NCBI GenBank assembly: GCA_038087875.1
Contig: CM075991.1
Span: 2,666,001-2,730,000 of the forward strand
Reading direction: 5' to 3'
Length of the DNA stretch: 64,000 bases
DNA from: Malacoraja senta
Lineage: Eukaryota
Shown here: in pieces, positions 5,341 to 57,401 of the stretch
How the letters are laid out: each line of letters begins with the position of its first letter
Numbering within the stretch: the stretch's first letter is position 1
Translations under genes and position numbers: made by a program
The notes under the pieces: generated by a model
The model's database searches: none
Told to the model about the DNA's origin: nothing
The model's input: the letters and a program-made list of their open reading frames with translations, nothing else

Positions 5341-5539
5341 ATGACCACCCTCGCCGCTCTCCCCGCGACCTGCACCTTCCTCCTGCTCCTCTCGCAGTGT
5401 CTGCACGCCCACCTCCCTCCTCAAGACCCCCGAGCCGGCCCGGCGAGCGGGGACAAGGCAGCGGTCTCCCTGCCCATCCCATCCCGAGCAGCAGAAGATG
5501 GAGCGACATCTCTCCGGACTGGCCAAGGACCCGCTCCTG
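5341..5539 (+). CDS. AEBP1: AEBP1/ACLP-like coding exon 1 (signal peptide)
   Basis: ATG at 5341, hydrophobic signal-like MTTLAALPATCTFLLLLSQCLHA, strong donor G|GTAAGT (phase 1). Lies in a TE-poor, CpG-richer region. Confidence 0.85.
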
Positions 5540-9453: not shown

Positions 9454-9840
9454 GGCGATCCAAGAAAGTGTTACATGGAGCAGAGGGCACCCTCCCAGAC
9501 GCGCGAAGGAGACGTGAAGAACCAGACAGTCTATCGACAGTGACACCAGAGGTAGCGCTGAAACCGACTGGGACACCCAAAAAGGTCAAGAAAGAAAAGA
9601 AGCCAAAGGTGAAGACGCCCAGGCCAAAGAAAGAGAAGAAACCAAAGGAGAAAGTTCCAAAGCCAAAGAAAGAGAAGAAGCCCAAAGAGAAAACTGCTAA
9701 ACCCAAAAAGGAAAAACAAAACAAAGAGAAGTTGCCCAAATCTAGGAAAGAAAAAGCCCCAAAGAAACCAGCGGATGAAGGTGAGGGGATTGTGGAGCCC
9801 GTGCGGGAAGAGAAGCCTCAGCCAGAGGAAGGATACGAGG
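9454..9840 (+). CDS. AEBP1: AEBP1-like exon 2, Lys/Pro/Glu-rich repeat
   Basis: Acceptor tctctttcaacag; in frame with exon 1 (GRSKKVLHGAEG...KKEKKPK...EEGYE); donor G|GTACGT. An alternative in-phase donor lies at 9780|9781 (GTGAGG). A K/P-rich N-terminal repeat is characteristic of ACLP. Confidence 0.85.
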
Positions 9841-19987: not shown

Positions 19988-20047
19988 AAAAACCAACTGA
20001 CCCCGCCACAGGAATTCATGAGGAAATTCTCAGAGGCTTGGAGAAAT
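19988..20047 (+). CDS. AEBP1: AEBP1-like exon 3 (60 nt, EKPTDPATGIHEEILRGLEK)
   Basis: Pyrimidine tract + CAG, open phase 1-1, donor T|GTGAGT. Confidence 0.7.
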
Positions 20048-24391: not shown

Positions 24392-24499
24392 CTAACCAGG
24401 ACCTGAATCCCACCGAATCCCCCAGCAATGCATTCACTCCACCCATTGTTAAAGCATACTACAACGTGACAAAGGAAATGAGCGGGGAGGAGAAGACGG
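24392..24499 (+). CDS. AEBP1: AEBP1-like exon 4 (108 nt, SNQDLNPTESPSNAFTPPIVKAYYNVTKEMSGEEKT)
   Basis: Acceptor tgtttgttttgtttccag, open phase 1-1, donor G|GTAGGT; contains an NVT sequon. Confidence 0.7.
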
Positions 24500-26994: not shown

Positions 26995-27078
26995 GCAAAC
27001 CTACGGAATCCTCAGATATTCCAACGGCGTCATATGGAGGGAATTATGATTATGGAATAGATGAAGATGCGGATGAAT
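26995..27078 (+). CDS. AEBP1: AEBP1-like exon 5 (84 nt, GKPTESSDIPTASYGGNYDYGIDEDADE)
   Basis: Acceptor ttttattccctttacag, open phase 1-1, weaker donor T|GTGTGT. Acidic Tyr-rich segment like the ACLP linker. Confidence 0.7.
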
Positions 27079-27732: not shown

Positions 27733-29638
27733 AAGCCCCAATATCTTATATACCTGTTATTCCTCGACTGTTTGATTGTTTAATCAACCACAAGCAGTTT
27801 TACAAAGAAAGTTCATTGAATTGGATACTTTGTTGTGACGTGTGACAAGTCACAGTGAAATTCTTTGCTTGCTTCCCTTGCCAAGGAATGCAAACACTCA
27901 CTCACAGTTACAAATCCGATAGTCTGTGAACTTATGAAGAACCAAGCAGTTCATTCAACCTCCTAGATTGCAGGCAATCTGTTAAAGGATAGATGTTTTC
28001 TCATTCTGTTTATTGAGTGAATCACAGAAAGGCCAATGTTCACCCAGGCAACGTCTTAATTCCCTGGGAAATGTGGTTCATCAACATGTAAAAGACATTT
28101 GGACAGGAACATGGTTTAGAATGATACAGGGCAAATGCCAGTAAATGGGACCAGCTTAGACAGGGCGGCATGGACTAGTTGGGCTGAAGGGCCTTTTCCC
28201 ATGCTGTATGTATGACTGTCTGCAGCCACTCTGCTGAAATTTTTTTTTTTTACTTTTAAAATATAACAATTTTATTTCTATTTTATTTTGAAATATAAAT
28301 AATGCTCCCTGCCTTGCCGTAATGTTATCTCAAAGGTTTCAAAGGTCTTTTATTGTCACGTGTACCAATTAAGGTACAGTGTTATTCGAATTACCATACA
28401 GCCATACTGAAAAAAGCAACAAGACACACGGCAGTCACGGTGGTGCAGCGGTACAGTTGCTGCCTCACAGCGAATGTAGCGCCGGAGACCCAGGTTCGAT
28501 CCCGACTACGGGTGCTGTCTGTACGGAGTTTGTACGTTCTCCCCGTGGGAAGATCTCTGAGATCTTCAGTTTCCTCCCACACTCCAAAGACCGACAGGTT
28601 TGCAGGTTAATTGGCTTGGTAAATGTAAAAATTGTCTCTAGTGGGTGTAGGATAGTGTTAATGTCGGGCTTGCATGTCAGCGTGGACCCGGTGGGCTGAA
28701 AGGTCTAAACTAAACGACATAAAAGTGAACACAAACATCCCCACATTCCTCACTGTGATGGAAGCAATAAAGTCCAATCTTCTTCCTCCTTATTCTCCCA
28801 CGGTCGGGGCAGTCAAACCATCTGCAGTCGGGGCGATCGAAGCTCCCACAGCCGGCGGTCGAAGCTCCCACAGCCGGCGGTCGAAGCTCCTGCGTCGGGG
28901 TGATCAAAGCTCCCGCGTCGGAGCGGGCGGAACTCCTGCGGCCTGGAGATCCCGGTCGGCTTCTAACCAGAAACCGCGAGCTCCACGATGTTAAAGCCCG
29001 CAGACTCCCGCGGTTGGAGCTCCCGCGGTCAGTCTCCAGCAGAAGCCCCCAGCTCCTCGATGTTAGACTGCAGTGCGGACGGAGATACGATATGGAGAAA
29101 AATCACATCTCCGTCGTGGTAAGAGATTTTTAAAAAGTCCCCCCCCCCCCCCCCACCCCACACACACACATAAAACAAGCTAAAGAACACTAAAACATAC
29201 ATTTAACACATACTATAAGACAACAAAGAAGGAAGTGACAGACAGACTGTTGGCGAGGCAGCTTACCCGGCATCTCTAATTTAGGTGAGCAAAAAATAAG
29301 ATGATAGTGGAATAGTGGTGTTTCTAACATCTTTAGACAGGCACATGAATGTGGATGGGATGGAGGGATATGGATCACATGCAGGTAGAGGACATTAGGT
29401 TAATGACATCATGTTTGGCACAGACATTGTGGGCTGAAGGGCCTGTTCCTGTGCTGTACTGTGCAGCATTCCACAATAGGCAATAGACAATAGGTGCAGG
29501 AGTAGGCCATTTGGCCCTTCGTGCCAGCACCGCCATTCAATGTGATCACGGCTGATCCACCTTCTAAGGTCTGGAATTCACCATGCGAGGAAATTAGGTG
29601 CAGGAGTCATTCTTCCCAAGTTTTCCTCTTTGTTGCAG

Positions 29639-29752
29639 ATGGGTGGAGCCAGCCGGAGAGCAAACCAAAGAAAACCTCCGGCACAGCATTGGAGAAGGAA
29701 CTCGAGTTTGAGTTGGAGATTGAGGAAGTTGAGACAGATGAACATGGGGAAT
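29639..29752 (+). CDS. AEBP1: AEBP1-like exon 6 (114 nt, YGWSQPESKPKKTSGTALEKELEFELEIEEVETDEHGE)
   Basis: Acceptor ttttcctctttgttgcag, open phase 1-1, donor T|GTGAGT. Confidence 0.8.
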
Positions 29753-31270
29753 GTGAGTATTTGCCATTTTCCTTCACGGATGCTGCCTGACCCACTGAGT
29801 TTGTTTTTCGCTTGAGTGCAGCAGTGCTCTGTTAGTCTATCCGTTCTAATACTGCTTCACAAATGACAAATGGCAAATGTATCTCGTAACAACACCTTCA
29901 CACAGGGGATTCAAAACTGCCATGGATACACATGACCTGTTCATCTGACACTGTAATGCAGAAAACTACATTATTCTGCCCATTCTGATTTCCTTCCTGC
30001 CAGTCGCAGCTCAGAAATATAATACACTATCAAGAAACAGAGGGCATAGGTTTGAGGTGAGATGGGGCAAGATTTAATAGGAATCTGAGGGTGGTTGGTA
30101 TATGGAATGAGCTGCCAGTGGAGGTAGCTGAGGCAAACACAGTGGGATATGGGCCAATTGCAGGCAAATGGGAGATGGGGCATCTTGTTTGGTCGTCATC
30201 CAACATGTTGACAGAATTGGTCACCTGACGGGTCACAGCGTGCACCATTTCGTCGTTTCTGGGGATCGCCACGAGGAGGCTTCCGTCATGATCCCCTCCA
30301 TGCTGTATGACTCTATACTATGCAACTCAGATTTCATTCTGGTGCCTCTGGATCCAGCAGCTTCTCATCTGCAGTCAAGGAAGCAATGACTATTGGGTTT
30401 GTAAGGCCTGCCAACTCAGCCTAGACCAAGGGCTAACAAGCCACAAATCAGATGACTGGAATGATCCCACATGAACTCAGTTTGCATTCACGGCTCATAA
30501 ACCTCAACTTTTGAACGATATTACCAGTGTTGAAGCTAATCAGAATTCATACTGCCCAGCTACTATTAAAAACATATGAGAGTGTAAAGAAGGTGACATG
30601 GAATTAGACGCCTATTCAGAGTTACCCATTCTGAGTTTTTTTTCAATATTTACAATGTGACAACATATCATAACTTCCTTTAACTCTGTAATCTTTACTG
30701 GAACAAGGGCTTGCATGAGATTCAAGGAGATACAAGAAACTGCAGATGCTGATTTACAAAAAAAGACACAAAGTGATGGACTAACTCAACAGGTCAGGCA
30801 GCATCTCTGGAGAACATGGATAGGAACTGTCTGAGATACTCCAGCACTTTGTGTCTTTGCTTGCAAGAGATTGTTTACAGTCAGTGATTAAAAAACAATG
30901 AACCACAAAGGATATGACTAATGGTGGAGAATTAAATAAAAAAATAAGATTACTGGAAATACAAGGTCTGTTCAGCATTAAAAGAAGACAAAGTTATTGA
31001 AGTTGATACCTCACATCTTCAATGACCCAGGTTCAGTCCTGACATCATCCTCTACTGCCTATGTGGTTTGCACGTTCTACCATTCTCATCCATATCCATG
31101 TGCCTATCTAAAAGTATTTTAAAAAACACTATTGTGTCTGCTTCTACTATCAACTATGGGTTTTCATAGGCCTCTTGGTTTATTACCGCAACCTGAAGGC
31201 CCACCAGTTGGTGGGCTAATTGGCCATTTTAGACGAACTCCAGTGTGTTGGTGAGTGGAAGAGTCTAGGG

Positions 31271-31778
31271 CAGGGGTTGGCAACCTTTTCTGCCAAGGGG
31301 CCAGGACGTATGTCTGTGATGGGCCACACGTATCACATGTACACATGGATCCCGCCCCGGATGGCAGGCATTAAATCACGTGCTCACATAGATCCCGCCC
31401 CTTCAAGGATGCCACCCTGAGCACTGAGCTCAAATATCACACTCACTCGTCCCCGGCCCACTGACAACCCCGATCCCGACAGTGAAGCCCAGACACAGAA
31501 GGTGCGCGGCCGTGCTGGCGGCTTTGCGCAGGATGTGGTACAACCAAATCACCTTCCGGGTACCAGAGGTAGACAATAATGCTGGAGAAACTCACTCCAG
31601 CATTTTTTTCTACTTTTGATTTTTCCAGCATCTGCAGTTCTTTCTTAAACATTCCAGGTACCGGAGATGACGGAAGTCTGCGGGCCGGATGATTGAGGAA
31701 AAAAAAAACGCCTGCGGGCTGGATGATTTTGGGTTACGGGCCGGATTCAGCCCAGGGCCCATAGGTTGCCGACCACTG
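31271..31778. mobile_element. hAT-Charlie-type MITE containing a PLE-derived insert
   Basis: TIRs CAGGGGTTGGCAACC/GGTTGCCGACCACTG; TSD gtctaggg/ctctaggg. Confidence 0.85.
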
Positions 31779-33987
31779 CTCTAGGGTGTATGTGTTGCAG
31801 GGTACATTAGTGCGGGAAAGAGATTGTTCAAGAAAGAACTGTAGATGTTTGAAAAATCGAAGGTAGACAAAAATGCTGGAGAAACTCAGCGGGTGAGGCA
31901 GCATCTACGGAGCGAAGGAATAGGTGACATTTCGGGTCGAGACCCTTCTTCAGACTGAAGAAGAGATTGCTCTGTCAGACAGCATAGCTTTGATAAATCA
32001 CAATGACCTCCTGAGCAAAAAAACAAATTGCTGGCGGCACTCAACGAGTTAGACAGCATCTGTGGAAGGAATGGAAAGGTGATATTTTAGTCTGAAGAAG
32101 GGACTCAATCCAAAACGTTGTGGCCATTCCCTCCACAGATGCTACCTGACCCCTTGAGTTCTTCCAGCACTTTGTGTTTTGGTCAAAATTCCAGCATCTG
32201 CAGTCTTCTGAAATGATCTTCTATTTTGTAAGGAGATATAGTAGTTTTGCAGAACCCTTCAACAGCACTAAGAACCCCTATCCAGAAAGAATGATTTCCT
32301 TTTAGATGCTGAATATTCTGCTGTACTTTTCCAATGCGTTGGATTTCAGTTTTACACTCCAATGCTTCAGTTTTCTTCTGGTTAATTCACCCAATTATAA
32401 TTAAAATAGAGATGATTAAAGCTGAATGGAAGGTAATATGTAATAACGGAATGGCAGCAATATGTGGCAGCACTGAATGAAACTACAGTGTATCACCTTG
32501 GCCACTAATACAAAGGGTCCTTCTCTTCTGAGGCTGCCCACTCAGGATCAAAGATGACTCTAGCTTTGCAGTTTCATGAGGTGGCCCATGAATCATAGGT
32601 CTACACAACATGGAAACAGACCCATTGGACCAACCCATCCATCCCGCCCAAGTTGCTTAGGTCAAGCTAGTCCAACTTCCCTGCACCTGACCCATATCCC
32701 TCCAAACCTTTCCTTTCCATGTACCTGTCCGAGTGTCTTTTAAACCTCAATTATTTCATCTGGCACCTCATTCCGTGTATGCACCACCCTCTGTTTGAAG
32801 CAGGTGACCCTCAGCTACCCTTTAAATCCTTTCCCTCTCACCATGAACCGATCTCCACCTTTAAACTCACGTACACTGGGGAAAAGACAGTGGGTGTTAA
32901 TTCAAGACCATGGCTATTAAAGACTAATTTGTAACTTCCAGAATCGCCTACTAGAGTCATTGAGTGATACAGTGTGGAAACAGGCCCTTCGGCCCAACTT
33001 GCCCACACCGACCAACATGTCCCAGCTACATTAGTCCCACCTGCCTGCACTTGGTCCATATCCCTCCAAACCTGCCCTATCCATGTACCTGTCTAACTGT
33101 TTCTTAAAGGTTGAGATAGTCCCAGCCTCAACTATCTCATCTGGCAGCTTGTTCCATACACCCACCACCCTTTGTGTGAAAAAGTTACCCCTCAGATTCC
33201 TATTACATCTTTTCCCCTTCACCTTGATCCTGGTCCTCGATTCCCCTACTCTGGGCAAGAGACTCTGTGCATCTACCCGATCTATTCCTCTCATGATTCT
33301 GTACACGTCTAAGGGTGGTGAATCTGTGGAATTCATTGCCACAGACGGCTGTGGAGGCCAAGTCAATGGATATTGTTATGGTGGGGATTGATAGATTCTT
33401 GATCAGTACGGGTGTCAGGGGTTAGGGGAAGAAGGCAGGAGAATGTGGTTGAGAGGGGTATATAGATCAGCCATGATTGAATGGCAGAGTAGATGCGATG
33501 GGCCAAATGGCCTAATTCTGCTCCTAGAACTTATGCATCGAGTCTGCTCCGCCATTCGGTCATGGCTGATCTACTTTTCCATCTTGACCCTTGTCCTGCC
33601 ATAACGTTTGATGGCCTTACTAATTAAAAACCTATTAGTCACTGCTTTAAAAATACCCAATGACTTGGCCTCCACAGCCATCTGTGGCAATGTATTCCAC
33701 AGATTCACCATGCTCTAAAGAAATTCCTCCCCATCTCCATTCTAAAGGTACATCCTTTTATTCCGAGACTGTGCCTTCTGGTCCGAGACTCTCCCAACTA
33801 CTGGAAACATCCTCTCCATGTCCACTCTATCTAGGCCTGTCTAATAGTGCATTTTGTCTCCATCTATTAGAGGGTCTATTGTGGGATATCTGGTGTTCAG
33901 GCTGCTCGCCAGAGCTGATTGAGTGCAATTGGGGTGGGTGTCTAGAGATATTGAACTGCAGAGTATGATGAATTGTATGTTTTTCAG

Positions 33988-34068
33988 TGCAACCCAAAGA
34001 GCCCAAACCTGATGAGACGTATGACTACGGAGATATATGGGACGAGAACCCTTGGGATGGAGACACAT
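33988..34068 (+). CDS. AEBP1: AEBP1-like exon 7, repeat exon A (LQPKEPKPDETYDYGDIWDENPWDGDT)
   Basis: Acceptor tgtttttcag, 81 nt phase 1-1, donor T|GTAAGT; paralogous to exons 8 and 9. Confidence 0.8.
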
Positions 34069-34890
34069 GTAAGTATTTTTGTACAGTTTTATTGTTATGT
34101 TTTGTAACAATAGATGCACAGAGTCTCTTGCCCAGAGTGGGAGAATCAAGGACAAGAGGACATAGGTTTAAGGTGAAGGGGAAATGATGTAATAGGAATC
34201 TGATGGGTAACCTTTTCACACATAGGGTGGTGGGTGTATGGAACAAGCTGCCAGAGGAGGTAGTTGAGGCTGGGAGTATCCCAACATTTAAGAAACAGTT
34301 AGACAGGTACATGGATAGGACAGGTTTGGAGGTGAGCATTTTCTGTAAGAAGGCAACACTCCTGTTCCCTGTAATATCTACAGTGTACAGGATGGCTGTG
34401 CCAGTGAGGAAGTCCGGTTATGTTGCTGATGCAATAGGCTCTCCTAGCCCCCGGACCCCATGTTGGAGGATGCTTTGCTTCCACTCCAGTTCTGCAATGC
34501 AGAAGCCCCAGACTCTCCTACTGGTGGGACAAGCTTCCTGAAGGGACAGGCTGGTGGGTAGTTGATGGGCTCCATCAGCCATTGATGTTGGGCTTCTCCT
34601 TGTCCCTGATGAACTCATGGTACCATTCTGAACACCCGCTCTACACTTGTACTGTGGCTGGGGATTCCCAGGAGTGAATCCGAATGCTCAGGAGCTGGGC
34701 TTTATCCAACAAGGCTTTGAGAAGGTGACGGAATCTTTTTCTATCTGCTGCAGCAGGTTCAGGAATAGAGTGGGACTATATTTTGGGACTCTGGTGTGGG
34801 CTCAAAGCTGATTGAGTGTAATGAGGACATGGATCTGTGTGGGGAACGTTGGATCATGAGGTACTTTAAGATGCAACATATGTTTTTCAG

Positions 34891-34971
34891 TACAATCCAA
34901 CGAGACCAACCCTGATGAAACCTATGACTATGGAGACACATGGGAGGAAAAGCCTTGGGATGGTGAAACAT
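34891..34971 (+). CDS. AEBP1: AEBP1-like exon 8, repeat exon B (LQSNETNPDETYDYGDTWEEKPWDGET)
   Basis: Acceptor tgtttttcag, 81 nt phase 1-1, donor T|GTAGGT. Confidence 0.8.
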
Positions 34972-35362
34972 GTAGGTATTCTCTTCCTTGTGCTGTTACT
35001 TTTTGTGATAATAGTTTCTTGGTGTGATTCTGGAGTAGGCCGCATTAAACAGGTTGTTAAATGAGATTTAAATTATAATGCTTTGTTCCGGGTGTATTCT
35101 GATTAACCTCCACTAACAAGAAGGTTAAGGGCAGCATGTACATGGAAACATGTAGGTGTCACGCTCTTTTCTTACCTGGAAATACATCATCAGTGTATAA
35201 TCACTGTGAGTAATTCCTGGAACTCTCTCTCCAAAGGCAATGTGAGACCACCACAAGGAGCTTTGCAACAGGTCTAGACTGCCCAACACCTCCTGAAAGG
35301 TAGAGACAAAGAACTGTAGATGTTGACATACCAAAAGAGATACAAAGCACTGGACCAACTTA

Positions 35363-35897
35363 AGGGGCCGTCCCACTTGGGCGACCTAATCCGCGAGTTC
35401 TGGCGAGTTTGCCCTCATACTCGCAGCGTGGTTGACACGAGGTCGTAGGAGGTCTACGTAACTCTGCTTCATGCTCGAGAGTGGTCTCCGTGTACTCGAG
35501 GCCTCAGCTAGGTCGCGGCGTTTTTTTCAATATGTTAAAAAATGCCCGCGAGTAAAGAAAGGTCGCCATGGAAAAAACTATACTTTTTATACTCGTAGGT
35601 TTAATCGTAGTAGGTCGTAGTAGGTCGGCATGTTAGTCATAGGTAATCAAGGGTAGTCGAAGGTAGTCGTAGATAGTCTTCATCATAGTCGAAGGGAGGT
35701 CGAAGGGAGGACGAAGGAGATCAAAGGAGGTCGTCTTCACTCTCCACTATTCGGTGTCCAATTTTCCCGAAGTTAGTCATAGCTGGTCGTAGCTAGTCAA
35801 AGCTGGTCTTCAACATAGTCGAAGGAGGTCTTCAACATGTCATTTTTTCAAACTCTTCTAAACTTGCCAATTAGGTCGCCCAAGTGGGACAGCCCCT
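35363..35897. mobile_element. PIF/Harbinger-type MITE
   Basis: TIRs AGGGGCCGTCCCACTTGGGCGACCTAAT/ATTAGGTCGCCCAAGTGGGACAGCCCCT; flanks TTA/TCA. Confidence 0.85.
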
Positions 35898-37361
35898 TCA
35901 GCAGGCCAGGCAGCATCTCTGGAGAACATGGATAGGTGACGTTTCAGGCCGGGTCTGTTCTACAGCCTTCTTCAGTCTGAAGAATGGTCGCGAACCAAAA
36001 TAGTCACCTATCCATATTCCCCTGAGGTGCGGCTTGACCTACTGAGTTACTCCAGCACTTTGTGTCACAAAGGCAATGAAGGATAGGCGGTAAATGCTGG
36101 TATTTGCAGTGTTTATCCAGACCCTGAAAGATGAATAAATAATACAGGTGCCGTTACAGAGGTCAAAGGCAGCTCGCACTCAGTCTGTCTCTCGAGATGT
36201 GTTGTCATCTGCTTCCAACTGCAGCTGATGCTTATGGTCCAGAGGGGTTTCCATATCTGGAGGTGTATCAATGAGGCTTGTGTGTGGTCTGGAGCAGATG
36301 CTTTGTATGTGCTGCACTAATCATTCTGAATGCAGACGAAGATGGCACCATAACGTTCACTCTGATTCATTAGTGGGAAGAGTCAAGGGGCAAAGTGTTT
36401 TATTGTTGAAACACAACAATTTAATTCTTACTTGTAGCAGCATGACAGGTATGAAAACATAATACTTTGTAGATGCCACGATAAACAAAAAAAGATCGTC
36501 AATAAACTAAAACATAACAATATGGTGCTAAAAATCAGAAATAAAGCTTCAAGTCCCTCGTGCACCCCAAGCTTTTCATAGTTTGGTTTAACTGGAGTTC
36601 GTAGTGATCAACAGCCGAATGTTTGTTGGGAAGGAGCTGTTCCTGAACCCGGACGTTACAGTTTTCAGGCTCCTGTATCTTCTTCCCGATGACAGAAGTG
36701 AAATGAGAGTGTGGGTCCTTGCTGACGCTGGCTGCCTTTATGAGGCAGCGCCTCCTATAGATCGCATTGATGGTGGGAGTATAATACTTTAAACAATAAA
36801 ATATACTTCATGATGCGAGGCATTGCTGCAGTCAATGTACATTTTAATTCACTAGGGAACATGTTGGCCGATGTGGGCACGATGGGCCGAAGGGCCTGTT
36901 TCCACGCTGTCTTCTTCTCTCATGTCCATCTTCCATGTTTCCAATGTTAACATCGCTGTCATCGTCCGTCATGTAAAGGACGCAAGCTTCCGGCGACGAT
37001 CAGTGGAAGCCATCACTTGTTGCAATAGATGATGGTGGTGGCAGAATTAGCTCAGGATACTTCCAGTTTCCAGCCCCGCGACATGGACGCTTCTGCTATG
37101 GGGACTCCACGCTGTATCACGCTATGATATTAAAAAATAAGAACATTACAGCTGGTTTTATTGGAAACAGGGTGGAATGATATGGTGGCTATTGTCTTTA
37201 AGATGAAAATATACTGTAACGGTTCCATTCTCAACGTCAACATGCTGATCGGTGAACATCAGACAAAGTTGTATTGCGTGGGCTGCAACAATATACACCG
37301 AGTTTTGTGCTTCTAAGTCTACAGATAAAATCAGTAATGTCAAATGTTGTGTGTTTTTCAG

Positions 37362-37436
37362 CACTGCCGATAGAACCCAACCCTGATGAAACATATGACT
37401 ACGGAGATACTTGGGACGAAAAGCCTTGGAAAGAAT
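37362..37436 (+). CDS. AEBP1: AEBP1-like exon 9, repeat exon C (SLPIEPNPDETYDYGDTWDEKPWKE)
   Basis: Acceptor tgtttttcag, 75 nt phase 1-1, donor T|GTAGGT. Confidence 0.8.
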
Positions 37437-37865
37437 GTAGGTATTTGCAGGAGATGTGGGCACTCATTGACTCAGGCAGCATTTAATCCCCAGAATAGAG
37501 TTGCTTGTCTTGCCATGGCTAGGACTGAGAGTCTGGGTTCGTGTCTACATCAGACCAAGTATGAGCAGTAGAGTCCCTCGCCTGAAGGACATCAGTGAAA
37601 CAGATGGGTTGTGGTGACGTCAAGTCAAGTTGAGTTTATTTCACATGTACGGGTCCGATGATGTAATGCTTGCAGCATCATTACAGGCGCATACACTCTG
37701 ACAAGCACACAAAATATATAAACTATCTATAAATTAAACATAAAATGGCAGATACATTTCTGCAAGACAGCAACTTGAAAAAAAGACTATAAATAAAGAA
37801 CCGGGGCATTAGTGGAAAATAAACATGGGGCGGCACGGTGGCGCAGCGATAGAGTTACTGCCTTA

Positions 37866-38163
37866 AGGGCCTGTCCCACCAGCATGCGCATGCGTCTAGC
37901 GCGACCAAACGGAAGCGGAGTTCGCGCTAAGTACGCGCAAAGTTCGCGCGTGACGTAATTTAAGTCAAACTCACCAATCAGCTGGGCAGGAGGCGGGCCG
38001 ACTGAATTTGGACGTCGTACGGCGTCGGGCGGTGATGTCATCACGCGACGGTACAGCGGGCAGTGACGTCATCGTGCAACGCCACGCGCTAGGCGTACGC
38101 CGTCAAGACGCTGCGTACGACGTCAAGACGCTGCGTATGCCGTCAAGACGTGGGACAGGCTCT
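37866..38163. mobile_element. PIF/Harbinger-type MITE inside a SINE
   Basis: TIRs AGGGCCTGTCCCAC/GTGGGACAGGCTCT, TTA TSD. Confidence 0.85.
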
Positions 38164-41100
38164 TTACAGCTCTTGCAGCGACAGTGATGCGGGTTCAACC
38201 CTGACTACGGGTGCTGTCTGTACGGAGTTTGTACGTGACCTTGAGTGGGTTTTCTCCGAGATCTTCGGTTTCCTCTCACACTCCAAACACGTACAGGTTT
38301 GTAGGTTGTGTGGGAAGAAACTGCAGATGCCGGTTTAAACCAAAGATAGACACAAAAGGCTGGAGTAACTCAACGGGACAGGCAGCATTTCTGGAGAGAA
38401 GGAATGGGTGACGTTTCCGTCTGAAGAAGGGTCTCAATCTGAAACGTCACCCATTCCTTCTCCCCAGAGATGCTGCCCGTCCCACTGACTTTCTCCAGCT
38501 TTTTGTGTCTGTCTCAGGTTTGTAGGTTAATTGCCTCGGGTTTGTGTACTTGGTATAAGTGTAAATTGTCCCTGGTATGTTATAGTGTTAATGTGCGGGG
38601 ATCGCTGGTGAGCAGGGACACGATGGGCAGAAACAATTCTAAACACTCTAGTAATACAAAAGGTGGTCTATGTTCTGTTGTTGATGTGGGATTGGAGTTG
38701 TGCAGGTTGGTTGAAGAAACTGATAGTGTGTGCAGCTATCACTACGAATGACTAGTTATTATTTTAAACTGAAATTAAATTCCACCGTTACCATGACTGC
38801 TACTGAACTTGGGCTGAAGGGACTGTTCCCTTGCTGTATAACTCGACATCTTTGTTATCTGGACTGTATATCCAGGTCTCTGCATTACTGGTCTGGATGT
38901 TTTATCACAGTGATAGGAATACTTGCCGATTATGATATTATTCACAAGATTCTGAAGTGTATCAACTGACAAAGATTATTAAATAATAAATTATATTTAA
39001 TTATTAAATTATAAATCTCCATTTCCTGAGTTCTGAGATACACTGGCAATATGAGATGATATAAAATAATTCCTTCAGTTCTCATTAAAATTCTAGAGAA
39101 ATATCTGAGTTAGCACTATGTTTAAGAAAGAACTGCAGATGCTGGAAAAATCGAAGGTAGACAAAAATGCTGGAGAAACTCAGGTGAGGCAGCATCTATG
39201 GAGTGAAGGAATAGGTGACGTTTCGGGTCGAGACCCTTCTTCAGACTGATGTGAGCACTATGGTTGATTTTTGTCTATAGCTCGTGTACACCAGACGTTA
39301 TGACAACAACATGAAGGATAGAAGGCAGAGTTGTACAGTGCAGTTTAGCTCGTCTCAGTTTCTAAGATCAGCTTCAATTGTTTAGTTTAGAGATACAGAG
39401 ATACGGAAACAGGCCCTTCGGCCCACTGAGTCCGCACCGACCAGCGATCCCCACACAGTAGGGAAATTTACATTTATACCAAGCCAATTCACCTACAAAC
39501 CTGTACGTCTTTGGAGTGTTGGGAGAAACTCATGTGGTCACGGGGAGAACATACAAACTTCGTGCCGACAGCACCCATAGTCAGGTTCGAACCCAGGTCT
39601 CCGGTGTTGCAAGTGCTGTCAGGCAGCAACTCTACCACTGAGCCACCATGTTGCCCAATTGTCAATCAAACATCTTTCTTAGGTTAGTTGACTTGGTGTG
39701 TGTGTAAATTGTCCATAGTGTGTGTAGGGTAGTGTAAATGTATGGGGTAGACAAAAATGCTGGAGAAACTCAGCGGGTGAGGCAGCATCTATAGATGATG
39801 TCTCACCCACTGAGTTTCTCCAGCATTTTTGTCTACCTTCGATTTTTCCAGCATCAGCAGCTCTTTCTTAAATGTAAATGTATGGGGATCGCTGGCCGGC
39901 ACAGATTCGGTGGATCGAAAGGCCTGTTTCCACGCTGTATCTCTAAATACTTTAAAATACAAAACAAAATTCAGGTGTGCCACAGACATCAACATCATTT
40001 AATGCTCCCTTCAGTGTTCAGGCTGTCTGTTTCTGAGAGCAGTCGTCTCCTTTTAGTTCCACGGGGAAACAGGATTTGAGTTAGCAACCAGCCTTGTGTA
40101 GCAACTGTTCTGAAGATGGACAAAATTAGCAGGATGCCAAAATGACATTCGGTTCATTTCATATGTTGTTCAAATCCCAATGGGAATAAAACACACACAA
40201 CAAATAAGATATGACATTTGCTCCTGTTAATGCTCCTTTGTTTTCTTTTGCACAAATGAAGAATATATCAAGTGAAGACACAAAGTGCTGGAGTAACTCG
40301 GTGGGTCAGGCAGTGTCTCTGGGGAACATAGATGGGTGACGTTTTGGGTCACGACCCTTGTAAACCCTTGTAGCTCCTTGTTTTTACAAAGCATCAAGCA
40401 GTCGAGCTAATTGTCTATCTCAATGTAAATAATTATTCTGTGGTGTCCTATTACTCAATTTCCATTTTATGTCTGTGTTCTAATTATTAAAATACGTCAT
40501 CACGGGGATAATAACATAAAGTTCAAGAGTCTGGTGTGGTTTCTAGAAACGCTTCAGCTCAGACGACATTTTTTTACATAAACTTGTAACAAAAAGACAG
40601 TAGAGACATTATTCAAAGATAGACACAAAGTGCTGGAGTGCAGGCAGCATCTCTGGAGAGAAGGAATGGGTGACGTTTCGGGTTGAGACCCTTCTTCAGA
40701 CCCTGTCTCGACTCGAAACGTCACCCATTCCTTCTCTCCAGAGATGCTGCCTGTCCCGCTGAATTACTCCAGCATTTTGTGTCTATCTTCGGTTTAAACC
40801 AGCATCTGCAGTTCCTCCCTACACGTACGGTCATTATCTGCCCACTGTATCCAGTGAAAAGAAATCATATGGGTTAAAATGAAGGAAGGGAGGAGAGTTG
40901 GCTCTGATGTGTAATCTGGTTGTTGGACTGGTGTAGCTGTGATGGAGGTCTGTCTCTGTGGCTACAGATGATGTGTACGACTTTACGTCATCATTGGGGA
41001 ATTGAAAGAAAAATAACTCCTGATCCAAAATAAAGTGAGTGTATGAATAGCCAAATATCTTGGAACAATCACGTAACCACGAACTATAATGTCACTGTGG

Positions 41101-42859
41101 CATGGATACGGAGATCGGTAACTGGTGCTCCATTCTAAGTTTAATGCCATAAAGAGTTATGGAACATAGAATAAAGTAGCACAGTAACAGGCTCTTGGAC
41201 CCACAATGTCTGTGCGGCACGGTGGCACAGCGGTAGAGTTGCTGCTTTGCAGCGCTTACAGCGCCAGAGACCCAGGTTCAATCCCGACTACAGGTGCTGT
41301 CTGTACGGAGTTTGTACGTTCTCCCCGTTAGCGTGTGGGTTTTCTCCGAGATCTTGGGTTTCCCCTACACTCCAAAGACGTACAGGTTTGTAGGTTAATT
41401 GGCTAGGTATAAATGTAAATCGCCCCTTGTGCATGTAGGGTAGTGGTCTCGGTGGGCCGAAGGGCCTGTTTCCACGCTGTATCTCTAAACTGAATATGAC
41501 GTTCGATGATCCATTCCCTGCACTTCCATGTACCTATCCAAAAGTCTCTTATACGCCACTATCATATCCGACTGCACCATCACTGGCAGCACATTCCAGG
41601 TACTCACCCCTCTTTGTGTGAAATAAACTTGTCTACATATCTCCTTTAAATGTTGTCCGTCTCATCTTAAAGCTATGTCTTTTAGTATTTTGCTAGACCA
41701 AGTGGGACCCGTTGGGTCCCGTTTCCCCAAGGCAATATTCCACCACTGACCCATAGCCCCCAACTGTGCAGGCCTTAAGATAGACACAAAGTGTTGGAGT
41801 AACTCAGCGTGACAGGAGAGAAGGAATGGGTGACGTTTTGGGTACAGACCCTTCTTCAGCACTTTGGTATAAACCAGCATCTGCAGTTCTTTCCCACACG
41901 AAGGATCAGAGACAGCATGTTCAGGAGAGAATTTATGAAATATTTCTTTGTGGAAAGGGTGGCATAAATATGGAGCTCTGGGTCGGAGATGATTGATGTT
42001 TCCAGTTCTAATTGTTATTCATTAATTTATTTTTGAAAACCCATCAGGTGAGGATTGAATCAGGCCAGGTTTTGTTTTGCATTCATTTAGCTGCCATTGT
42101 TCACCCCAAGACTTGAGATTAAATCCTGCTACTCTCTTGCCCAGAGTAGGTGAATTGAGGACCAGTGGACATAGGTTTAAGGTGAAGGGGAGAAGATTTA
42201 ATAGGAATCTGAGGGGTAACTTTTTCACACAAAGGGTGGTGGGTGTATGGAGGTAGTTGAGGCAGGGACTATCCCAACATTTAAGAAACAGTTAGATAGG
42301 TACATGGATACAACAGGACCAAACAAAGGCCAGTATGGGCAAGTTGGGCCGAAGGGCCTGTTTCCACATTGTATCACTCTATGACTATAACACAAACTGC
42401 AAATAATCCGTGCTTCAGAAGTGGATAAAAATAGAAAGGTGTAGTGAGACCAAGTGGGCCGAGTAAATGGTTTTATTGACAATACGTTACTTGAATTACA
42501 CGAACATTTCGTCGCGTTTTTTTAAGCTCTTGTCGTTGCGAAGAGCACTAGCTACTGAACAAACTTACTAACTCTAAAAATCCCGCGAAAAACCCTGTCA
42601 CGTGACAGTCCCGACTTCTGACGAGGGTTCTGCATGCACAGCTTAACCACTAGGTGCCGCTACAGAGTGAAGGTTTACAGGTATTCTGGGCCAAGTACTG
42701 GATACGTGGAATACAGGGGTGAAGGGGTATGGACTGAAGACTTTGAACCAAGAGTTTGGACAATTCATGTAGCCACACAAACCACTGCACTGAAAGTTCA
42801 GAAGATCAGGGGTGTCTGAAAAGAGCGGCTGAACTGACATCTTGTTTTATGCTTTGCAG

Positions 42860-42922
42860 CAAAACCTAAAAAGGTACCAGAAGAACAAGAGCCAGAAGAA
42901 TATTGGCCACCATTACGAAAAG
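42860..42922 (+). CDS. AEBP1: AEBP1-like exon 10 (63 nt, SKPKKVPEEQEPEEYWPPLRK)
   Basis: Acceptor ttttatgctttgcag, donor G|GTGAGT. The EE-W-P motif just before CPP resembles mammalian AEBP1 (EEEWTPTEKVKCPP, from memory). Confidence 0.85.
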
Positions 42923-43260
42923 GTGAGTTGAATTCTTGAGACCATAATTGGAAGTACTTTGCTGATTATTTCTAAGCAGGCCGATGTACCATCTAACATT
43001 GTCCTCTTTTCAGTTTACCAATACGTTGAATATCAGCAACAGTTCTCTCAAAGGTCTGAGCACTTCTTGCTCCTCTTGAAAATGGGACTGATCGACTGAT
43101 TGATTGAAAGATATGGCATGGAAATAGGCCCTTCGGCCCATTGATCATTCGTTCACACTAGTTCTATGTTATCCATCTTTCTCATCCACTCCCTACACAT
43201 TGGGGGCAAATTTTACAGAGGTGAATCAACATACAATTACACGTGTCTTTGGGATGTGGG

Positions 43261-47276: not shown

Positions 47277-48011
47277 TTACTGTTGCAGTGAAACTTACTA
47301 ATTACAACACAAAGGAAGGCCATTTGGCCCGATCGACCCATGGTGTCTGCCACCAATTGCTCTCCGCAGTCCCAAACACTAACTTCCTGTACCCTTCTGA
47401 CTTACACTCTCTGACAAACAGAAAATACAAAGTGCTGGAGTAACTCAGCGGGTCAGGCAGCATCTCTGGAGGAGTTGAATGGATGATATTTTGGGTCGGG
47501 ACCCTCCTTCAGACACACACCCTTTCAATTTCCCTTTGATCATTTTGCCATTTGCCGACACAGAGAAGTATATTATAGTGGCCAGTTAACCAACTTGCTC
47601 ATCTAGGGGTGGTGCAGCAGTGGAGTTGCTGCCTTACAACATCAGAGACCCAGGTTCGATCCTGACTAAGGGGCTGTTTGCACAGAATTTGTACATTCAT
47701 CTTGGGCTTTCTCCGGGTGTTCCGGTTTCCGCCCACACTCAAAAGACGTACAGGTTTGAAGATTAATTGGCCGCTGTAAGTTGTAAATTGTCCCCAGTGT
47801 GTTGGATAGTGCTAGTGCACGGGATATTTGGTGGTTGGCACAGGCTCGGCGGGCCAAAGGGCCTGTTTCTGCTCTGTATCTCTAAAGTCTAAAGGAAATC
47901 TTTGGGATGTGGGAGGGAACCAGAGCACCCAGTGGAAATCCATGTGGTCATGAGGGGGAAGATGCAAACTCCACACAGACAGCACCGAGGTCAGGGCCAA
48001 ACTAGGGTCTC

Positions 48012-49078
48012 TGAACGGGTCCTTTTCACAATGGCAGGCAGTGACTAGTGGGGTACCACAAGGCTCAGTGCTGGGACCCCAGCTATTTACAATTTATATT
48101 AATGATCTGGACGAGGGAATTGAAAGCAACATCTCCAAGTTTGCGGATGACACTAAGCTGGGGGGCAGTGTTAGCTGTGAGGAGGATGCTAGGAGACTGC
48201 AAGGTGACTTGGATAGGCTGGGTGAGTGGGCAAATGTTTGGCAGATGCAGTATAATGTGGATAAGTGTGAGGTTATCCACTTTGGTAGCAAAAACGGGAA
48301 GGCAGACTATTATCTAAATGGTGGCCGATTAGGAAATGGGGAGATGCAGCGAGACCTGGGTGTCATGGTACACCAGTCATTGAAAGTAGGCATGCAGGTG
48401 CAGCAGGCAGTGAAGAAAGCGAATGGTATGTTGGCCTTCATAGCAAGAGGATTTGAGTATAGGAGCAGTGAGGTTCTACTGCAGTTGTACAGGGTCTTGG
48501 TGAGACCACACCTGGAGTATTGCGTACAGTTTTGGTCTCCAAATCTGAGGAAGGACATTATAGCCATAGAGGGAGTGCAGAGAAGGTTCACCAGACTGAT
48601 TCCTGGGATGTCAGGACTTTCATATGAAGAAAGACTGGATAGACTTGGCTTATACTCACTAGAATTTAGGAGATTGAGAGGGGATCTTATAGAAACGTAC
48701 AAGATTCTTATGGGGTTGGACAGGCTAGATGCAGGAAGATTGTTCCCGATGTTGGGGAAGTCCAGGACAAGGGGTCACAGCTTAAGGATAAGGGGAAAAT
48801 CCTTTAAGACCGAGATGAGGAAAAACTTTTTCACACAGAGAGTGGTGAATCTCTGGAACTCTCTGCCACAGAGGGTAGTTGAGGCCAGTTCATTGGCTAT
48901 ATTTAAGAGGGAATTAGATGTGGCCCTTGTGGCTAAAGGGATCAGGGGGTATGGAGAGAAGGCAGGTACGGGATACTGAGTTGGATGATCAGCCATGATC
49001 GTATTGAATGGCGGTGCAGGCTCGAAGGGCCGAATGGCCTACTCCTGCACCTAATTTCTATGTATCTATGTATCTATG
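48012..49078 (+). mobile_element. 5'-truncated young CR1 LINE with uninterrupted RT C-terminal ORF (48041-48979)
   Basis: SGVPQGSVLGP, FADD, LVRPHLEYCVQFW, FFTQRVVNLWNSLP; 312 aa without a stop; (CTATGTAT)n tail. Confidence 0.96.
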
Positions 49079-52550: not shown

Positions 52551-53080
<530 letters not shown>

Positions 53081-53676
53081 TTCTGGGAAGACCAGAGAAT
53101 TCAGGCTCTGGGGAACTGGTGCAGAGAGCAAGTTGTAGCCTGACGCAGATTAGCCATGATCATATTGACCAGTGGGGTGGAACTGTGAGGCGAATGGCCC
53201 ATTGTATCACAGAACTCGAATTCTGGTTTTTTTGCCGTTAAAAGTGTTATTTTTATTCATAATGATGTAGCGAAATATAGACTATACTCCAGAACTATCT
53301 TAAGAAAGCAGCTGCAGTAAAGCTACATGTTTTCTTACTCCCAAAAATATATTCAGGCACGTCATCAAAAATATTAACCTTTCTGACAAACCACACAAGG
53401 ACTAAATAAGCCGAGGGTTAACAGCTATTTTCCAGCACCAGCTTCAACAAAGATGCATCAGATCACTCTTTACTGCATGGCAATCGAGAAGGCTCTCACA
53501 CTGCATTGTCCCAACTGTATTCATTGGGTTCCCATGCATATAGACTTCCAGCCGAGACAGCACCAGAAGAGTGTGTTCAGAGCATTGTAATGGGCCTGTC
53601 CCACTTAGGCGATTTTTTCGGCAACTACAGGTGACCTGGCTGTTTTCACATGGTCGCGGGGTGATGCCTGTACGGT

Positions 53677-54650
53677 CATCAATGATCTGGATGATGGTGT
53701 GGAAAATTGGATTAGTAAGTATGCAGATGATACTAAGATAGGTGGTGTGGTGGATAATGTAGATTTTCAAAGTCTACAGAGAGATTTAGGCCATTTGGAA
53801 GAGTGGGCTGAAAGATGGCAGATGGAGTTTAATGCTGATAAATGTGAGGTACTACATCTCGGCAGGACAAATCAAAATAGGACGTACATGGTAAATGGTA
53901 GAGAATTGAGGAATGCAGTTGAACAGAGGGATCTAGGAATAACTGTGCATAGTTCCCTGAAGGTGGTAAAGAAAGCTTTTGGGGTGCTGGCCTTTATAAA
54001 TCAGAGCATTGAATATAGAAGTTGGGATGTAATGTTAAAATTGTACAAGGCATTGGTGAGGCCAATTCTGGAGTATGGAGTACAATTTTGGTCGCCTAAT
54101 TATAGGAAGGATGTCAACAAAATAGAGAGAGTACAGAGGAGATTTACTAGAATGTTGCCTGGGTTTCAGCAACTAAGTTACAGAGAAAGGTTGAACAAGT
54201 TAGGTCTTTATTCTTTGGAGCGCAGAAGGTTAAGAGGGGACTTGATAGAGGTCTTTAAAATTATGAGCGGGTTAGACAGAGTTGACGTGGATAAGCTTTT
54301 TCCATTGAGAGTAGGGAAGATACAAACAAGGGGACATGACTTGAGAATTAAGGGACAGAAGTTTAGGGGTAACATTAGGGGGAACTTCTTTACTCAGAGA
54401 GTGGTAGCTGTGTGGAATGAGCTTCCAGTGGAAGTGGTGGAGGCTGGTTCGATTTTATCCTTTAAAAATAGATTGGATGGGTATATGGACGGGAAAGGAA
54501 TGGAGGGTTATGGTCTGTGCAGGTAGATGGGACTAGGGGGAAGTATTTATTTAAAAAATAAAAATAAAAAATAAAAAATGTTCGGCACGGACTTGAAGGG
54601 CCGAGATGGCCTGTTTCCGTGCTGTAATGGTTATATGGTTATATGGTTAT
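53677..54650 (+). mobile_element. CR1 LINE (second subfamily), RT C-terminal ORF 53699-54526
   Basis: YADDTK, LVRPILEYGVQFW, FFTQRVVAVWNELP; (TTATATGG)n tail. Confidence 0.94.
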
Positions 54651-55140
54651 GAGTAGTCTCCTCAAGTCACCAAAAGAGTCGTAACGTTTTTCTGGCCGCC
54701 GCTGGATTTTGAAATGTTCAAAACTTTTCGGCGACTGTGGGCTTAATGTAACTAGTCTTCTCCTGCCATAGGTGCTGTCGTAGGTTGTCGCCAGGATGAC
54801 GCAGGTTGTCGCCAGGTGACGTTGGTTGTCGCCGGGTGCTGACTTCGGTGAATTCCATTAGCGACAACCTACGTCAACCGGCAACGGGTACCGGCGACAG
54901 GGTCGTTGCTTGTCGTAGCTTGTCGCGGGTGGACATAGGTTGACTTCGGTTGTCGCCTGTGTGGTCGTAGGTTGTCGTACGTGTGGTTGTAGGTGGATGT
55001 CCTAAGTCACGATGATTGGGTCGGCGGTTGTCAGTAGCTTGCTGTAGCTTGACGTCGACTAGTTGGTAGATGTCGTAGACATTATCGTAGGGGGGTCCAG
55101 TAGCCGCTTTTTCGGCAACCTGCTACGACTGCTACGATCA

Positions 55141-56060
55141 AATCTACTTAACCTTATCCACTGCCTCGAGGATATAAAGTGTTGGATGGCCCAGAACTTC
55201 CTCCAACTAAACGAAAGTAAGTCTGAGGTCATCCTTCTCGGCCCCTCGGACTCGATCAAAATGATAGCAGGCAGCCTTGGAAGCTTTACCTCGTTACTCA
55301 AACCTCACATCAAAAACCTTGGCGTGATATTTGAAATTTGACAAACAAGTCAATGCCGTGGTAAAAGCTAGCTTCTTCCAGCTTCCATAGCTAAAATAAA
55401 ACAATTCCTCCAGTTTGATGACCTCGAAAAGATCATCCACACATTTATCTCCTCCCGCCTCGATTACTGCAACTCCCTTTACACTGGCATCAGCCAATCT
55501 TCCCTGCAACTGGTCCAAAACCCCGCAGCAAGACTCCTGACGGGCACCTGAAAAAGGGACCACATCACCCCGATTCTGGCCTCTCTCCACTGGCTCCCTG
55601 TGCTGTTCCGAATAAATTTCAAAATCCTTCTTTATGTTTACAAAGCCCTTAATGGACTTGCCCCCACCTACGTCAAAAGTCTGCTTGCCCACCACACCAC
55701 CTCCAGGTCCCTCAGATCGGCCGACTTGGGGTTACTGAACATCCCGCGGTTTAGGCATAAGCTCAGGGGCGACCGCGCCTTTGCGGTTGCAGCCCCTAGA
55801 CTGTGGAACAGCATCCCTCTTCCCATCAGAACTGCCCCCTCCATCGACTCTTTTAAGTTGAGACTTAAAACTCATCTTTACTCTCAAGGCTTTCTTGACG
55901 TCCTCTGAGGGAGGGCTTTATGTATGTATGTATTTATGTATGTACTTAATCTTTGAACCTATGTTGTATAACGTTAGTACCTCCACCAATGTAAAGAACT
56001 TTGGTCAACGAAAGTTGTTTTTTAAATGTGCTATAAAAATAAAAGTGACTTGACTTGACT
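55141..56060 (+). mobile_element. L2-type LINE 3' fragment (frameshifted)
   Basis: CLEDIKCWMAQNFLQLNESKSE, SRLDYCNSL, HITPILASLHWLPV, RAFAVAAPRLWNSIP; (GACTT)n tail. Confidence 0.9.
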
Positions 56061-56166
56061 GTGACAGTCGTCGAAAAAATTGCATAAGTGGAACAGGTTC
56101 AAGTGGACAAAGTTCAAAGGTGATGTCGATTCCTATTTGAGGTATTCATCGTGGCAAGAGTTGTTA

Positions 56167-56369
56167 AGGGCCTGTCCCACTTAGGCGACTCTTTAGGCGT
56201 CTTCCAGTGGAATTAATGGAATTCACCTACGACACCTGGCGACAACCTACGACAACACCTACGATAGCAAAAATTGCTGCCACTGTTGCCCAAAAATTTT
56301 CAACATGTTGACATTTTTACAGCAGTCGCCTGTAGTCACCCAAAAAATCACCTAAGTGGGACAGGTCCA
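56167..56369. mobile_element. PIF/Harbinger-type MITE
   Basis: TIRs AGGGCCTGTCCCACTTAGG/CCTAAGTGGGACAGGTCCA, TTA TSD. Confidence 0.85.
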
Positions 56370-56862
56370 TTAATGATGGAGTGGAGGACTGGGAAGTTTC
56401 TAAGATCCAGCAACAGAAGACTCAGAAGCTCTGAAGAAGGGACATCATGAGCTTTGAGAGCAAACTTGCATGCAGTATAAAATGCAACAATAAAAGTTTT
56501 TATGGGTATAAATAAGAAAGAGAGTAATTCAGATCGTCATGCAGCCTCGAGAGAACATGGTGAATTAATAACAGCAAACAGAGAGATGGTAGAAATGCAT
56601 GGAACATAGAACTGTACAATACAGGAGCAGGACCTCAGGCCCATGCCAAACATGATGCCAAGTTAAACTAACCTCCTCTGCTTCCACATGGTCTATTTCC
56701 TGCATGTCCATGTGCCAGTCTAAAAGCCTCAAACTTCATTATCGTATCTGCTTCCACCACCGCTTCTGGCAGTGCGCTCCAGGCACCCAAAACCCCCCCA
56801 TTATGCCGCACATCTCCATTGAACTCCATAGAGTCCCTGCCCATATAGCTCCTCACTCGACT

Positions 56863-57401
56863 GTCCAGGGACCCCCGACAGTCCTTTCCGGTTAGGCACA
56901 GGTTCACTTGCACCTGCTCCAACTTCATCGACTGCATCTGTTATTCAAGATGTGGACTCTTACAAATCGGCGAGACCAAACGTAAACTGGGCGATCATTT
57001 CGCTAAACACCTTCTCTCAGTCCACCTGAACCTACCTGATCTCCCGGTTGCCAAACGCTTTAACTCCCCTTCCCATTCCCACACTGACCTTTCTGTCCTA
57101 GGCCTCCTCCATTGTCAGAGTGAGGCCAAATGCAAATTGGAGGAACAGCATTTCATATTTTGCTTGGGCAGCTTACAACCCAGTGGTATGATATTGATTT
57201 CACTAACTTCAAGAACCCCGGCATTCCCTATCTCTCCATCCCGCTCCCACCCAAGTCGCACCAGCTTCTCGTTCTCAACCAGCAAACAGCTAACAATGAC
57301 CTGTTTCCTTTATCATTGTTACTTTTTTGCATATCTTATATTCATTTGTTCTATATCTCTCTACATCATCGTCTATATCTCTCATTTCCCTTTCCCCTGA
57401 C
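56863..57401 (+). mobile_element. Penelope-like retroelement fragment, GIY-YIG endonuclease and 3' UTR
   Basis: Frame from 56876: RQSFPVRHRFTCTCSNFIDCICYSRCGLLQIGETKRKLGDHFAKH...PVAKRFNSPSHSH...KLEEQHFIFCLGSLQPSGM, a decayed PLE GIY-YIG domain. Confidence 0.88.

Follow-up and report, generated by a model that had tools for sequence, protein, structure and literature searches.

Clustered tyrosines in a flexible acidic tract beside a folded domain occur in several secreted, collagen-associated proteins, namely fibromodulin, osteoadherin and lysyl oxidase. Collagen is a ligand of the tyrosine-sulfate tracts in fibromodulin and lysyl oxidase, and heparin-binding proteins are further ligands in the case of fibromodulin; acidic sulfotyrosine tracts have convergent origins in different vertebrate lineages (PMC9372746, PMC7310474). 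AEBP1/ACLP, a collagen-regulating matrix protein and M14 carboxypeptidase-like pseudoenzyme, is known to bind collagen through its discoidin domain (PMC13062534, PMC7889889, PMC10196838). The locus described here, most likely the AEBP1/ACLP gene of the skate Malacoraja senta, carries three tandem copies (A, B and C) of a short acidic exon rich in tyrosine, in the acidic linker that precedes this domain. It lies within a stretch of 64,000 nt (contig CM075991.1 of assembly GCA_038087875.1, positions 2,666,001 – 2,730,000), referred to below as the window. The triplication is very probably specific to batoids, going back to two duplications in the common ancestor of rays and skates. The repeated tract is best read, with a probability of roughly 0.55, as a flexible, Tyr-sulfated acidic array that would be auxiliary to the discoidin domain, rather than as a folded module. 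Unlike those tracts, the batoid one is internal, exon-repeated and Trp-bearing, its sulfation is only predicted, and no sequence homology to them is claimed.

The three copies share the acceptor TGTTTTTCAG, end at GT donors (GTAAGT, GTAGGT and GTAGGT in A, B and C) and are translated without stops. A first-pass annotation of the window had their coordinates, lengths (81, 81 and 75 nt), common acceptor and phase 1-1 ends right. A nucleotide profile of the exon gave exactly three matches in the window (76 – 84 bits); these are its own training sequences, so the informative part is the absence of a fourth copy, the next-best match scoring 3.5 bits. The annotation had also described an invariant PDETYDYGD core with differences confined to third codon positions, as if under purifying selection. 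Within the window species the core is indeed invariant; across batoids only E4 and the pattern Y-x-Y-x-D-x-W-x-E are fixed. All core differences are synonymous (codons 7 – 15, pairwise 9 synonymous and 0 non-synonymous), but this count is circular because the core was picked for its invariance. The non-synonymous and synonymous rates (dN/dS) from Nei-Gojobori counts over 22 codons, with a Fisher test, are 0.14/0.68 for A and B (p = 0.022), 0.10/1.17 for A and C (p = 0.0005) and 0.11/1.34 for B and C (p = 0.0002). On these counts the suggestion of purifying selection between the copies holds, at a dN/dS of about 0.1 – 0.2. Outside the core, the A and B comparison gives no such signal (1 synonymous, 7 non-synonymous).

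Tandem genomic duplication, likewise proposed in the annotation, is supported by the introns. The stretch upstream of copy A resembles that upstream of copy B (33911/34804) with a local score of 49, reached by none of 500 dinucleotide shuffles (maximum 41), and has no other match within the window. This is one of six flank comparisons made, and the other five are unconvincing: A and C upstream (110/500 shuffles), B and C upstream (20/500, and out of register), and all three downstream pairs (123, 429 and 278 of 500). The exons are thus adjacent and homologous, with equal phase at both ends and homologous splice flanks, as in the tandem duplication of symmetric exons known from disordered regions, with which they also share a disorder-type composition and internal tandem copies (PMC3632108). 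The batoid case is no different in mechanism, being one lineage-specific instance fixed across batoids. The phase symmetry highlighted in the annotation is true of the three exons but is not theirs alone: each of the nine internal exons preceding the discoidin domain is phase 1-1 (Table 1), which makes symmetry a feature of the linker as a whole.

Three copies are present in 7/7 batoids: the window species, Amblyraja, Leucoraja, Narcine, Pristis, Hypanus and Hemitrygon. The first three we take to be Rajiformes, Narcine Torpediniformes, Pristis Rhinopristiformes and the last two Myliobatiformes. Each of the 12 shark species has a single copy (Heterodontus, Cetorhinus, Carcharodon, Heptranchias, Mustelus, two Scyliorhinus, two Chiloscyllium, Hemiscyllium, Stegostoma and Rhincodon). 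In the chimaera Callorhinchus this position is taken by a diverged, Trp-rich stretch that scores 9.4 bits, above the shuffled 99th percentile (5.9) and below the shuffled maximum (13.3). No bony-vertebrate linker exceeded the 99th percentile among the 96 usable ones (from 108 matches, 12 of them dropped as short or unanchored; the set has few teleosts and is without the human protein), and a triplicate common to vertebrates was therefore not found. The expansion that the annotation assigned to a cartilaginous-fish lineage is real, but narrower than that, as sharks do not share it. A kinship of the repeat with the YDYGD motif of sturgeon, paddlefish and gar was considered and rejected, the scores of 3.3 – 3.9 bits lying inside the shuffled range.

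Skates and torpedo rays (Rajiformes and Torpediniformes) represent the first two batoid divergences; the batoid orders parted largely in the Jurassic, and rays share with sharks other than Hexanchiformes a common ancestor near 256 million years ago (212 – 312) (preprint 10.64898/2026.02.13.705779). Since three copies occur in batoids that span the first two divergences, both duplications are most simply placed on the batoid stem. Between species, copies in the same slot are 77% (A), 73% (B) and 71% (C) identical, while identity between slots is 56 – 69%. The single shark exon matches the batoid copies in position, in its unit of 26 – 27 residues and at 48 – 59% mean identity (copy A being closest on average, at 59%); it differs in copy number, in a less conserved Tyr pair and Trp, and in an extra Tyr at position 20. 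In a tree of the units, copy C forms a clade (85%), with A and B set against C plus sharks (78%). This tree and the intron similarity of A and B suggest an order of events in which unequal crossing-over would have copied a frame-neutral exon within a linker composed wholly of phase 1-1 exons, copy C splitting off first and A and B parting later. Some residues are common to copies of a single lineage, such as Thr7 in both A and B of Leucoraja and Amblyraja, which hints at gene conversion. Paralogues were also more alike within a species than between species (14/576 and 5/576 permutations, one species per order; 12/36 among three skates), but the excess also arose in a simulation that had no conversion, only restricted residues and unequal rates (P = 0.49 and 0.38); the fit of its branch lengths was saturated.

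Across the 18 units of six batoids only E4, Y11, Y13, D15, W17 and E19 are invariant. P7 (14/18), T10 (15/18), G14 (14/18) and the last Trp, W22 (13/18), are looser. The three units of Hemitrygon, judged by eye, keep the six invariant residues, including both tyrosines. In the 12 sharks Y11 is found in 9, Y13 in 11 and W17 in 7, and constraint looks tighter after the triplication, although the species are not independent. A second acidic exon of the linker, exon 5, has the motif YDY[GE]I in 13/13 chondrichthyan proteins examined, the chimaera included; it is a strong sulfation candidate as well, and its donor, GTGTGT, is unusual. Homology of the repeat to exon 5, with which it shares YDYG, is not supported (profile-profile probability of 7.6% over 6 columns).

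Proteins of related skates contain the three exons joined in frame, which bears out their proposed splicing. A search with the three copies led to one cluster of 17 members, and the RefSeq proteins of Amblyraja radiata and Leucoraja erinacea are among the 15 listed. All 14 of the listed members that cover the linker have three units in tandem, as do 3/3 Hypanus RefSeq isoforms; this differs from the single copy per transcript of a mutually exclusive exon cluster. Twelve of the 14 come from Logan contigs of 4.3 – 4.8 kb, encoding 966 – 1071 residues (the 966-residue forms lack the N-terminus only). As exons 1 – 11 alone occupy 47 kb of the window, these contigs can be taken as mRNA assemblies; contigs drop rare isoforms, so an exon may occasionally be skipped. 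A search of sequencing runs with exon 2 listed no RNA dataset for the window's own species, which speaks neither for nor against splicing there. Four contig runs of one related organism, all from one study, guessed to be RNA and in two cases flagged as probably DNA, gave no exon-exon joint among the listed matches over 29550 – 43000, a range swamped by repeats. In each run one contig covers both exon 6 and exon B, with the same depth over each; this is no more than a hint. The contig overlying exon B has four differences in 34919 – 34940, one giving Ile for the core Thr, as in sharks, and may represent another copy placed there.

Under the preferred reading, the linker tract would be disordered, and Golgi tyrosylprotein sulfotransferases would modify at least Y13, which has Asp at -1 and five acidic neighbours. 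With its Y-x-Y tyrosines sulfated, the tract would then attach to basic ligands, of which collagen and heparin-binding growth factors are examples. Like the sulfotyrosine regions of fibromodulin and lysyl oxidase, it would act as an auxiliary, heparin-mimicking anionic segment, placed immediately N-terminal to the discoidin domain. The role is proposed as auxiliary because the known collagen binding of ACLP is through the discoidin domain. Within 5 positions of each repeat Tyr there are 4 – 5 acidic, 0 – 1 basic and 0 – 2 hydrophobic residues and no Cys; the residue at -1 is Asp for Y13 and Thr for Y11. This context agrees with a published table of criteria for tyrosine sulfation (PMC7310474) and, for Y13, with the Asp(-1) rule (PMC9372746). 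Conservation of the Tyr in at least 75% of sequences, a further criterion, is seen in 18/18 batoid units and, for Y11 and Y13, in 9/12 and 11/12 sharks. The tract consists of 33% D/E, 16% P/G and 5% I/L/V/F/M residues. AlphaFold2 predicts no secondary structure for it, at a predicted local distance difference test score (pLDDT) of 39 – 48 compared with mostly 65 – 91 in the discoidin core; a first model was low throughout (mean pLDDT 34.7). Duplication would have rearranged the tract without adding net charge: batoid linkers have 4 – 5 tight Y-x-Y clusters and 6 – 7 Trp, against 1 – 2 and 3 – 5 in sharks, while Tyr totals are 14 – 15 and 11 – 15 (Pristis, which is N-terminally short, is left out of the linker counts).

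Several observations weigh against this reading. The number of Tyr preceded by D/E did not rise (6 – 7 in 5 full-length batoid proteins, 6 – 9 in 12 sharks), nor did net charge, which overlaps (-16 to -28 in batoids, -10 to -42 in sharks), because batoids lost other tyrosines. One of these lies just before copy A, where 6/6 batoid proteins and the window have His and 12/12 sharks have Tyr; another is the Tyr at unit position 20, present in 11/12 sharks and in no batoid unit. The single unit of Heptranchias has lost both tyrosines, which are thus dispensable there, and sulfation does not explain the invariant Trp. Skate copy B has an N-E-T N-glycosylation sequon, a listed negative feature, 8 residues before Y11; there is none in skate copies A or C, nor in the units of Narcine and Hypanus. 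Disorder is weakly indicated by AlphaFold2, given a shallow alignment over the linker and scores below 50 in some of the folded peptidase domain as well. In-frame joining is seen in related skates rather than in the window's own species, and the tree of 26-residue units is poorly resolved, uniting all batoid units at only 26%. No literature linking ACLP/AEBP1 to tyrosine sulfation was found among the listed matches, judged by title or start of abstract, of a search limited to openly accessible papers without their supplements, where sulfoproteomics tables might list ACLP; a paper that mentions both AEBP1 and sulfation (PMC8547655) concerns glycosaminoglycans.

An alternative is that a frame-neutral exon was duplicated by chance and the spacer grew neutrally, its copies held only by general demands (acidic, secreted, tolerant of length) with Tyr turnover elsewhere. 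The unchanged D/E-Tyr count and net charge suit this explanation, as do the 9/9 phase 1-1 internal exons, the lengthening of the linker by other repeats elsewhere (e.g. a caecilian Tyr/acidic unit present three times, or an acidic unit of catsharks in the exon 2 region) and the frequent origin of disordered regions from tandemly duplicated symmetric exons (PMC3632108). It is nevertheless unlikely, if not easily dismissed: exactly three copies have been kept in 7/7 batoids of four orders, between-copy dN/dS is 0.1 – 0.2, and Y11, Y13 and W17 are fixed in the batoid units compared with 9/12, 11/12 and 7/12 in sharks (again with the reservation that species are not independent). The annotation proposed an expanded binding module. 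In detail, each unit would then be a sequence-specific ligand or small module, in which Trp and Tyr dock into a partner regardless of sulfation and three copies provide avidity; collagen, a receptor such as LRP6/FZD8, or the basic Lys-rich region of ACLP itself would be candidate partners. The invariant W17, W22 in 13/18 units and a unit spacing fixed at about 27 residues point in this direction, and ACLP is reported to bind FZD8 and LRP6 at a site that is unstated (PMC12892912). The unit, however, has no family in Pfam and no predicted structure, and gave no match in the Atlas. Searches elsewhere returned the skate cluster only (4 candidates), nothing among 286 short candidates, and, among 1.84 billion representatives, one unrelated repeat protein without the tyrosines (batoid AEBP1 itself is absent from this library, showing its limits). 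Moreover, ACLP binds collagen through its discoidin domain (PMC13062534, PMC10196838), and mammalian ACLP, going by the bony-vertebrate linker scan, is without the unit, so that its known partners do not need it. A module of this kind is distinctly improbable.

Two further explanations carry little weight. An acidic tract with 33% D/E might bind calcium or hydroxyapatite and aid mineralisation of the tessellated cartilage of batoids, and a calcium-sequestering role has been proposed for comparable acidic tracts of osteoadherin (PMC7310474). Shark linkers with one copy are as acidic or more so, and much of the conservation falls on aromatic rather than acidic positions. Sharks too have mineralised cartilage, and this function is very unlikely. 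Nor do we see much to recommend isoform tuning by alternative or mutually exclusive splicing of the three exons as a cassette, which is scarcely credible where 14/14 linker-bearing skate proteins and 3/3 Hypanus isoforms include all three copies, even if contigs drop rare variants. Each exon is frame-neutral, as a cassette would be, and copy A is bracketed by an inverted pair of fragments resembling a long interspersed element (LINE), at 33063 – 33275 and 34111 – 34332 (222 nt, 89%). Similar pairs, however, bracket exons 2, 3 and 5 too (4/11 exons in all), and the pair around copy A was rejected as special.

The host gene is likely the skate orthologue of AEBP1/ACLP, as the annotation had it. 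tBLASTn with the cluster proteins places eleven exons between 5341 and 52706 (Table 1), the orthologous pieces being 67 – 100% identical. Exons 1 – 2 encode a signal peptide (judged by eye) and a Lys/Pro-rich N-terminal extension, which is typical of ACLP (PMC3218051). As in AEBP1/ACLP, Lys/Pro-rich repeats and an acidic linker are followed by discoidin, M14 and regulatory domains, and in the Leucoraja protein PF00754 (discoidin) and PF00246 (M14) exceed the Pfam cut-off. The first discoidin exon matches human AEBP1 exon 10 in length, phases and Gln end, properties that follow from a published in-frame deletion (PMC10196838). Ten exons precede it in skates and nine in humans, and the linker unit is without detectable counterpart in the 96 bony-vertebrate linkers. 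The best 120 of 1297 protein matches comprise 99 named AEBP1, 13 non-tetrapod proteins named as CPXM2-like and 8 unnamed or hypothetical ones. None of these 120 is a tetrapod protein with a CPXM1 or CPXM2 name, in what is a one-way test. It is these AEBP1 names, together with the Lys/Pro-rich extension and the exon-10-like discoidin exon, that make orthology likely. CPXM1 and CPXM2 share the architecture of a discoidin and an inactive M14 domain, and RefSeq names the chondrichthyan proteins 'inactive carboxypeptidase-like protein X2' (CPXM2-like), while in UniRef the chimaera protein is entered as 'AE binding protein 1a'; an Atlas search did not separate the three paralogues. The entries so named by RefSeq in chondrichthyans, sturgeon, paddlefish and coelacanth resemble AEBP1 orthologues, which points to a probable systematic misnaming. 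Exon 1 of the window is without four residues found in Amblyraja and Leucoraja. tBLASTn found no further AEBP1 exons in the last 11 kb (52707 – 64000), so either the next intron exceeds 11 kb or an exon was missed.

Table 1. Exons of the probable skate AEBP1/ACLP gene, and the duplicated intron stretch, within the window.
Feature	Position	Strand	Remarks
Exon 1, start codon, signal-peptide-like N-terminus	5341..5539	+	phase 0-1; tblastn 88% to Amblyraja, Leucoraja; donor GTAAGT
Exon 2, Lys/Pro-rich repeats	9454..9840	+	387 nt, phase 1-1
Exon 3	19988..20047	+	60 nt, phase 1-1
Exon 4	24392..24499	+	108 nt, phase 1-1
Exon 5, second YDYG-bearing acidic exon, single-copy	26995..27078	+	84 nt, phase 1-1
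Exon 6, Glu-rich	29639..29752	+	114 nt, phase 1-1
Intron stretch 5' of copy A	33866..33930	+	homologous to 34766-34825, 5' of copy B
Exon 7, repeat copy A	33988..34068	+	81 nt, phase 1-1
Exon 8, repeat copy B	34891..34971	+	81 nt, phase 1-1
Exon 9, repeat copy C	37362..37436	+	75 nt, phase 1-1
Exon 10, last linker exon	42860..42922	+	63 nt, phase 1-1
Exon 11, first discoidin (F5/8 type C) exon	52597..52706	+	110 nt, phase 1-0; tblastn, 100% over 37 residues

Repeats of other kinds are found in the AEBP1 linkers of other vertebrates. The caecilian Rhinatrema has three copies (residues 304 – 440) of a different Tyr/acidic unit, which is single in most tetrapods, and the axolotl (Ambystoma, residues 326 – 420) has two by pattern match, although the second failed an 8-bit profile. 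At that threshold the profile of this unit matched once in 85 of the 96 bony-vertebrate linkers, not at all in 7, twice in 3 and three times in 1. The linker of Geotrypetes is also among those with two- to three-fold repeats of the unit. In catsharks, the basking shark and the epaulette shark, a short Glu-rich unit at the end of the Lys-rich region varies in repeat number. Such repeats thus seem to arise readily in this linker, as would be expected where a disordered region consists of symmetric exons (PMC3632108).

A wider proposal, which we regard as doubtful, is that throughout jawed vertebrates the ACLP linker might act as a tyrosine-sulfate domain that has gone unrecognised, offering collagen and growth factors another binding site beside the discoidin domain. 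Its valence would have been retuned by independent exon repeats, with three copies of one unit in batoids and two to three of another in a caecilian and a salamander. If true, the batoid triplet would have adapted matrix mechanics to the ray body plan, and would amount to a natural experiment on the N-terminal part, so far unexplained, of the product of a human Ehlers-Danlos gene. As a rare genomic change (three copies versus one) the triplication also marks rays and skates, but batoid monophyly is not in doubt and its value as a lineage marker is modest. No literature was found, among openly accessible papers, on a batoid AEBP1 exon triplication or on AEBP1 in elasmobranchs, and PMC9925722 covers whole-gene M14 duplications rather than linker exon repeats. 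The triplication is apparently undescribed, while the gene and the process behind it are both known, and its function is inferred only. Since the exons are already in RefSeq protein models, and exon duplication is ordinary in the disordered linkers of matrix proteins, the finding is neat rather than surprising.

The window also contains remnants of mobile elements. An element of about 540 nt resembling a miniature inverted-repeat transposable element, with 53-nt terminal inverted repeats, lies in the intron between copies B and C (35359 – 35901), and a similar end sequence starts near 37866. Transposon remnants at 1896 – 2411, 47954 – 48976 and 53609 – 54523 comprise a hAT dimerisation domain (PF05699) and two reverse-transcriptase fragments (PF00078).

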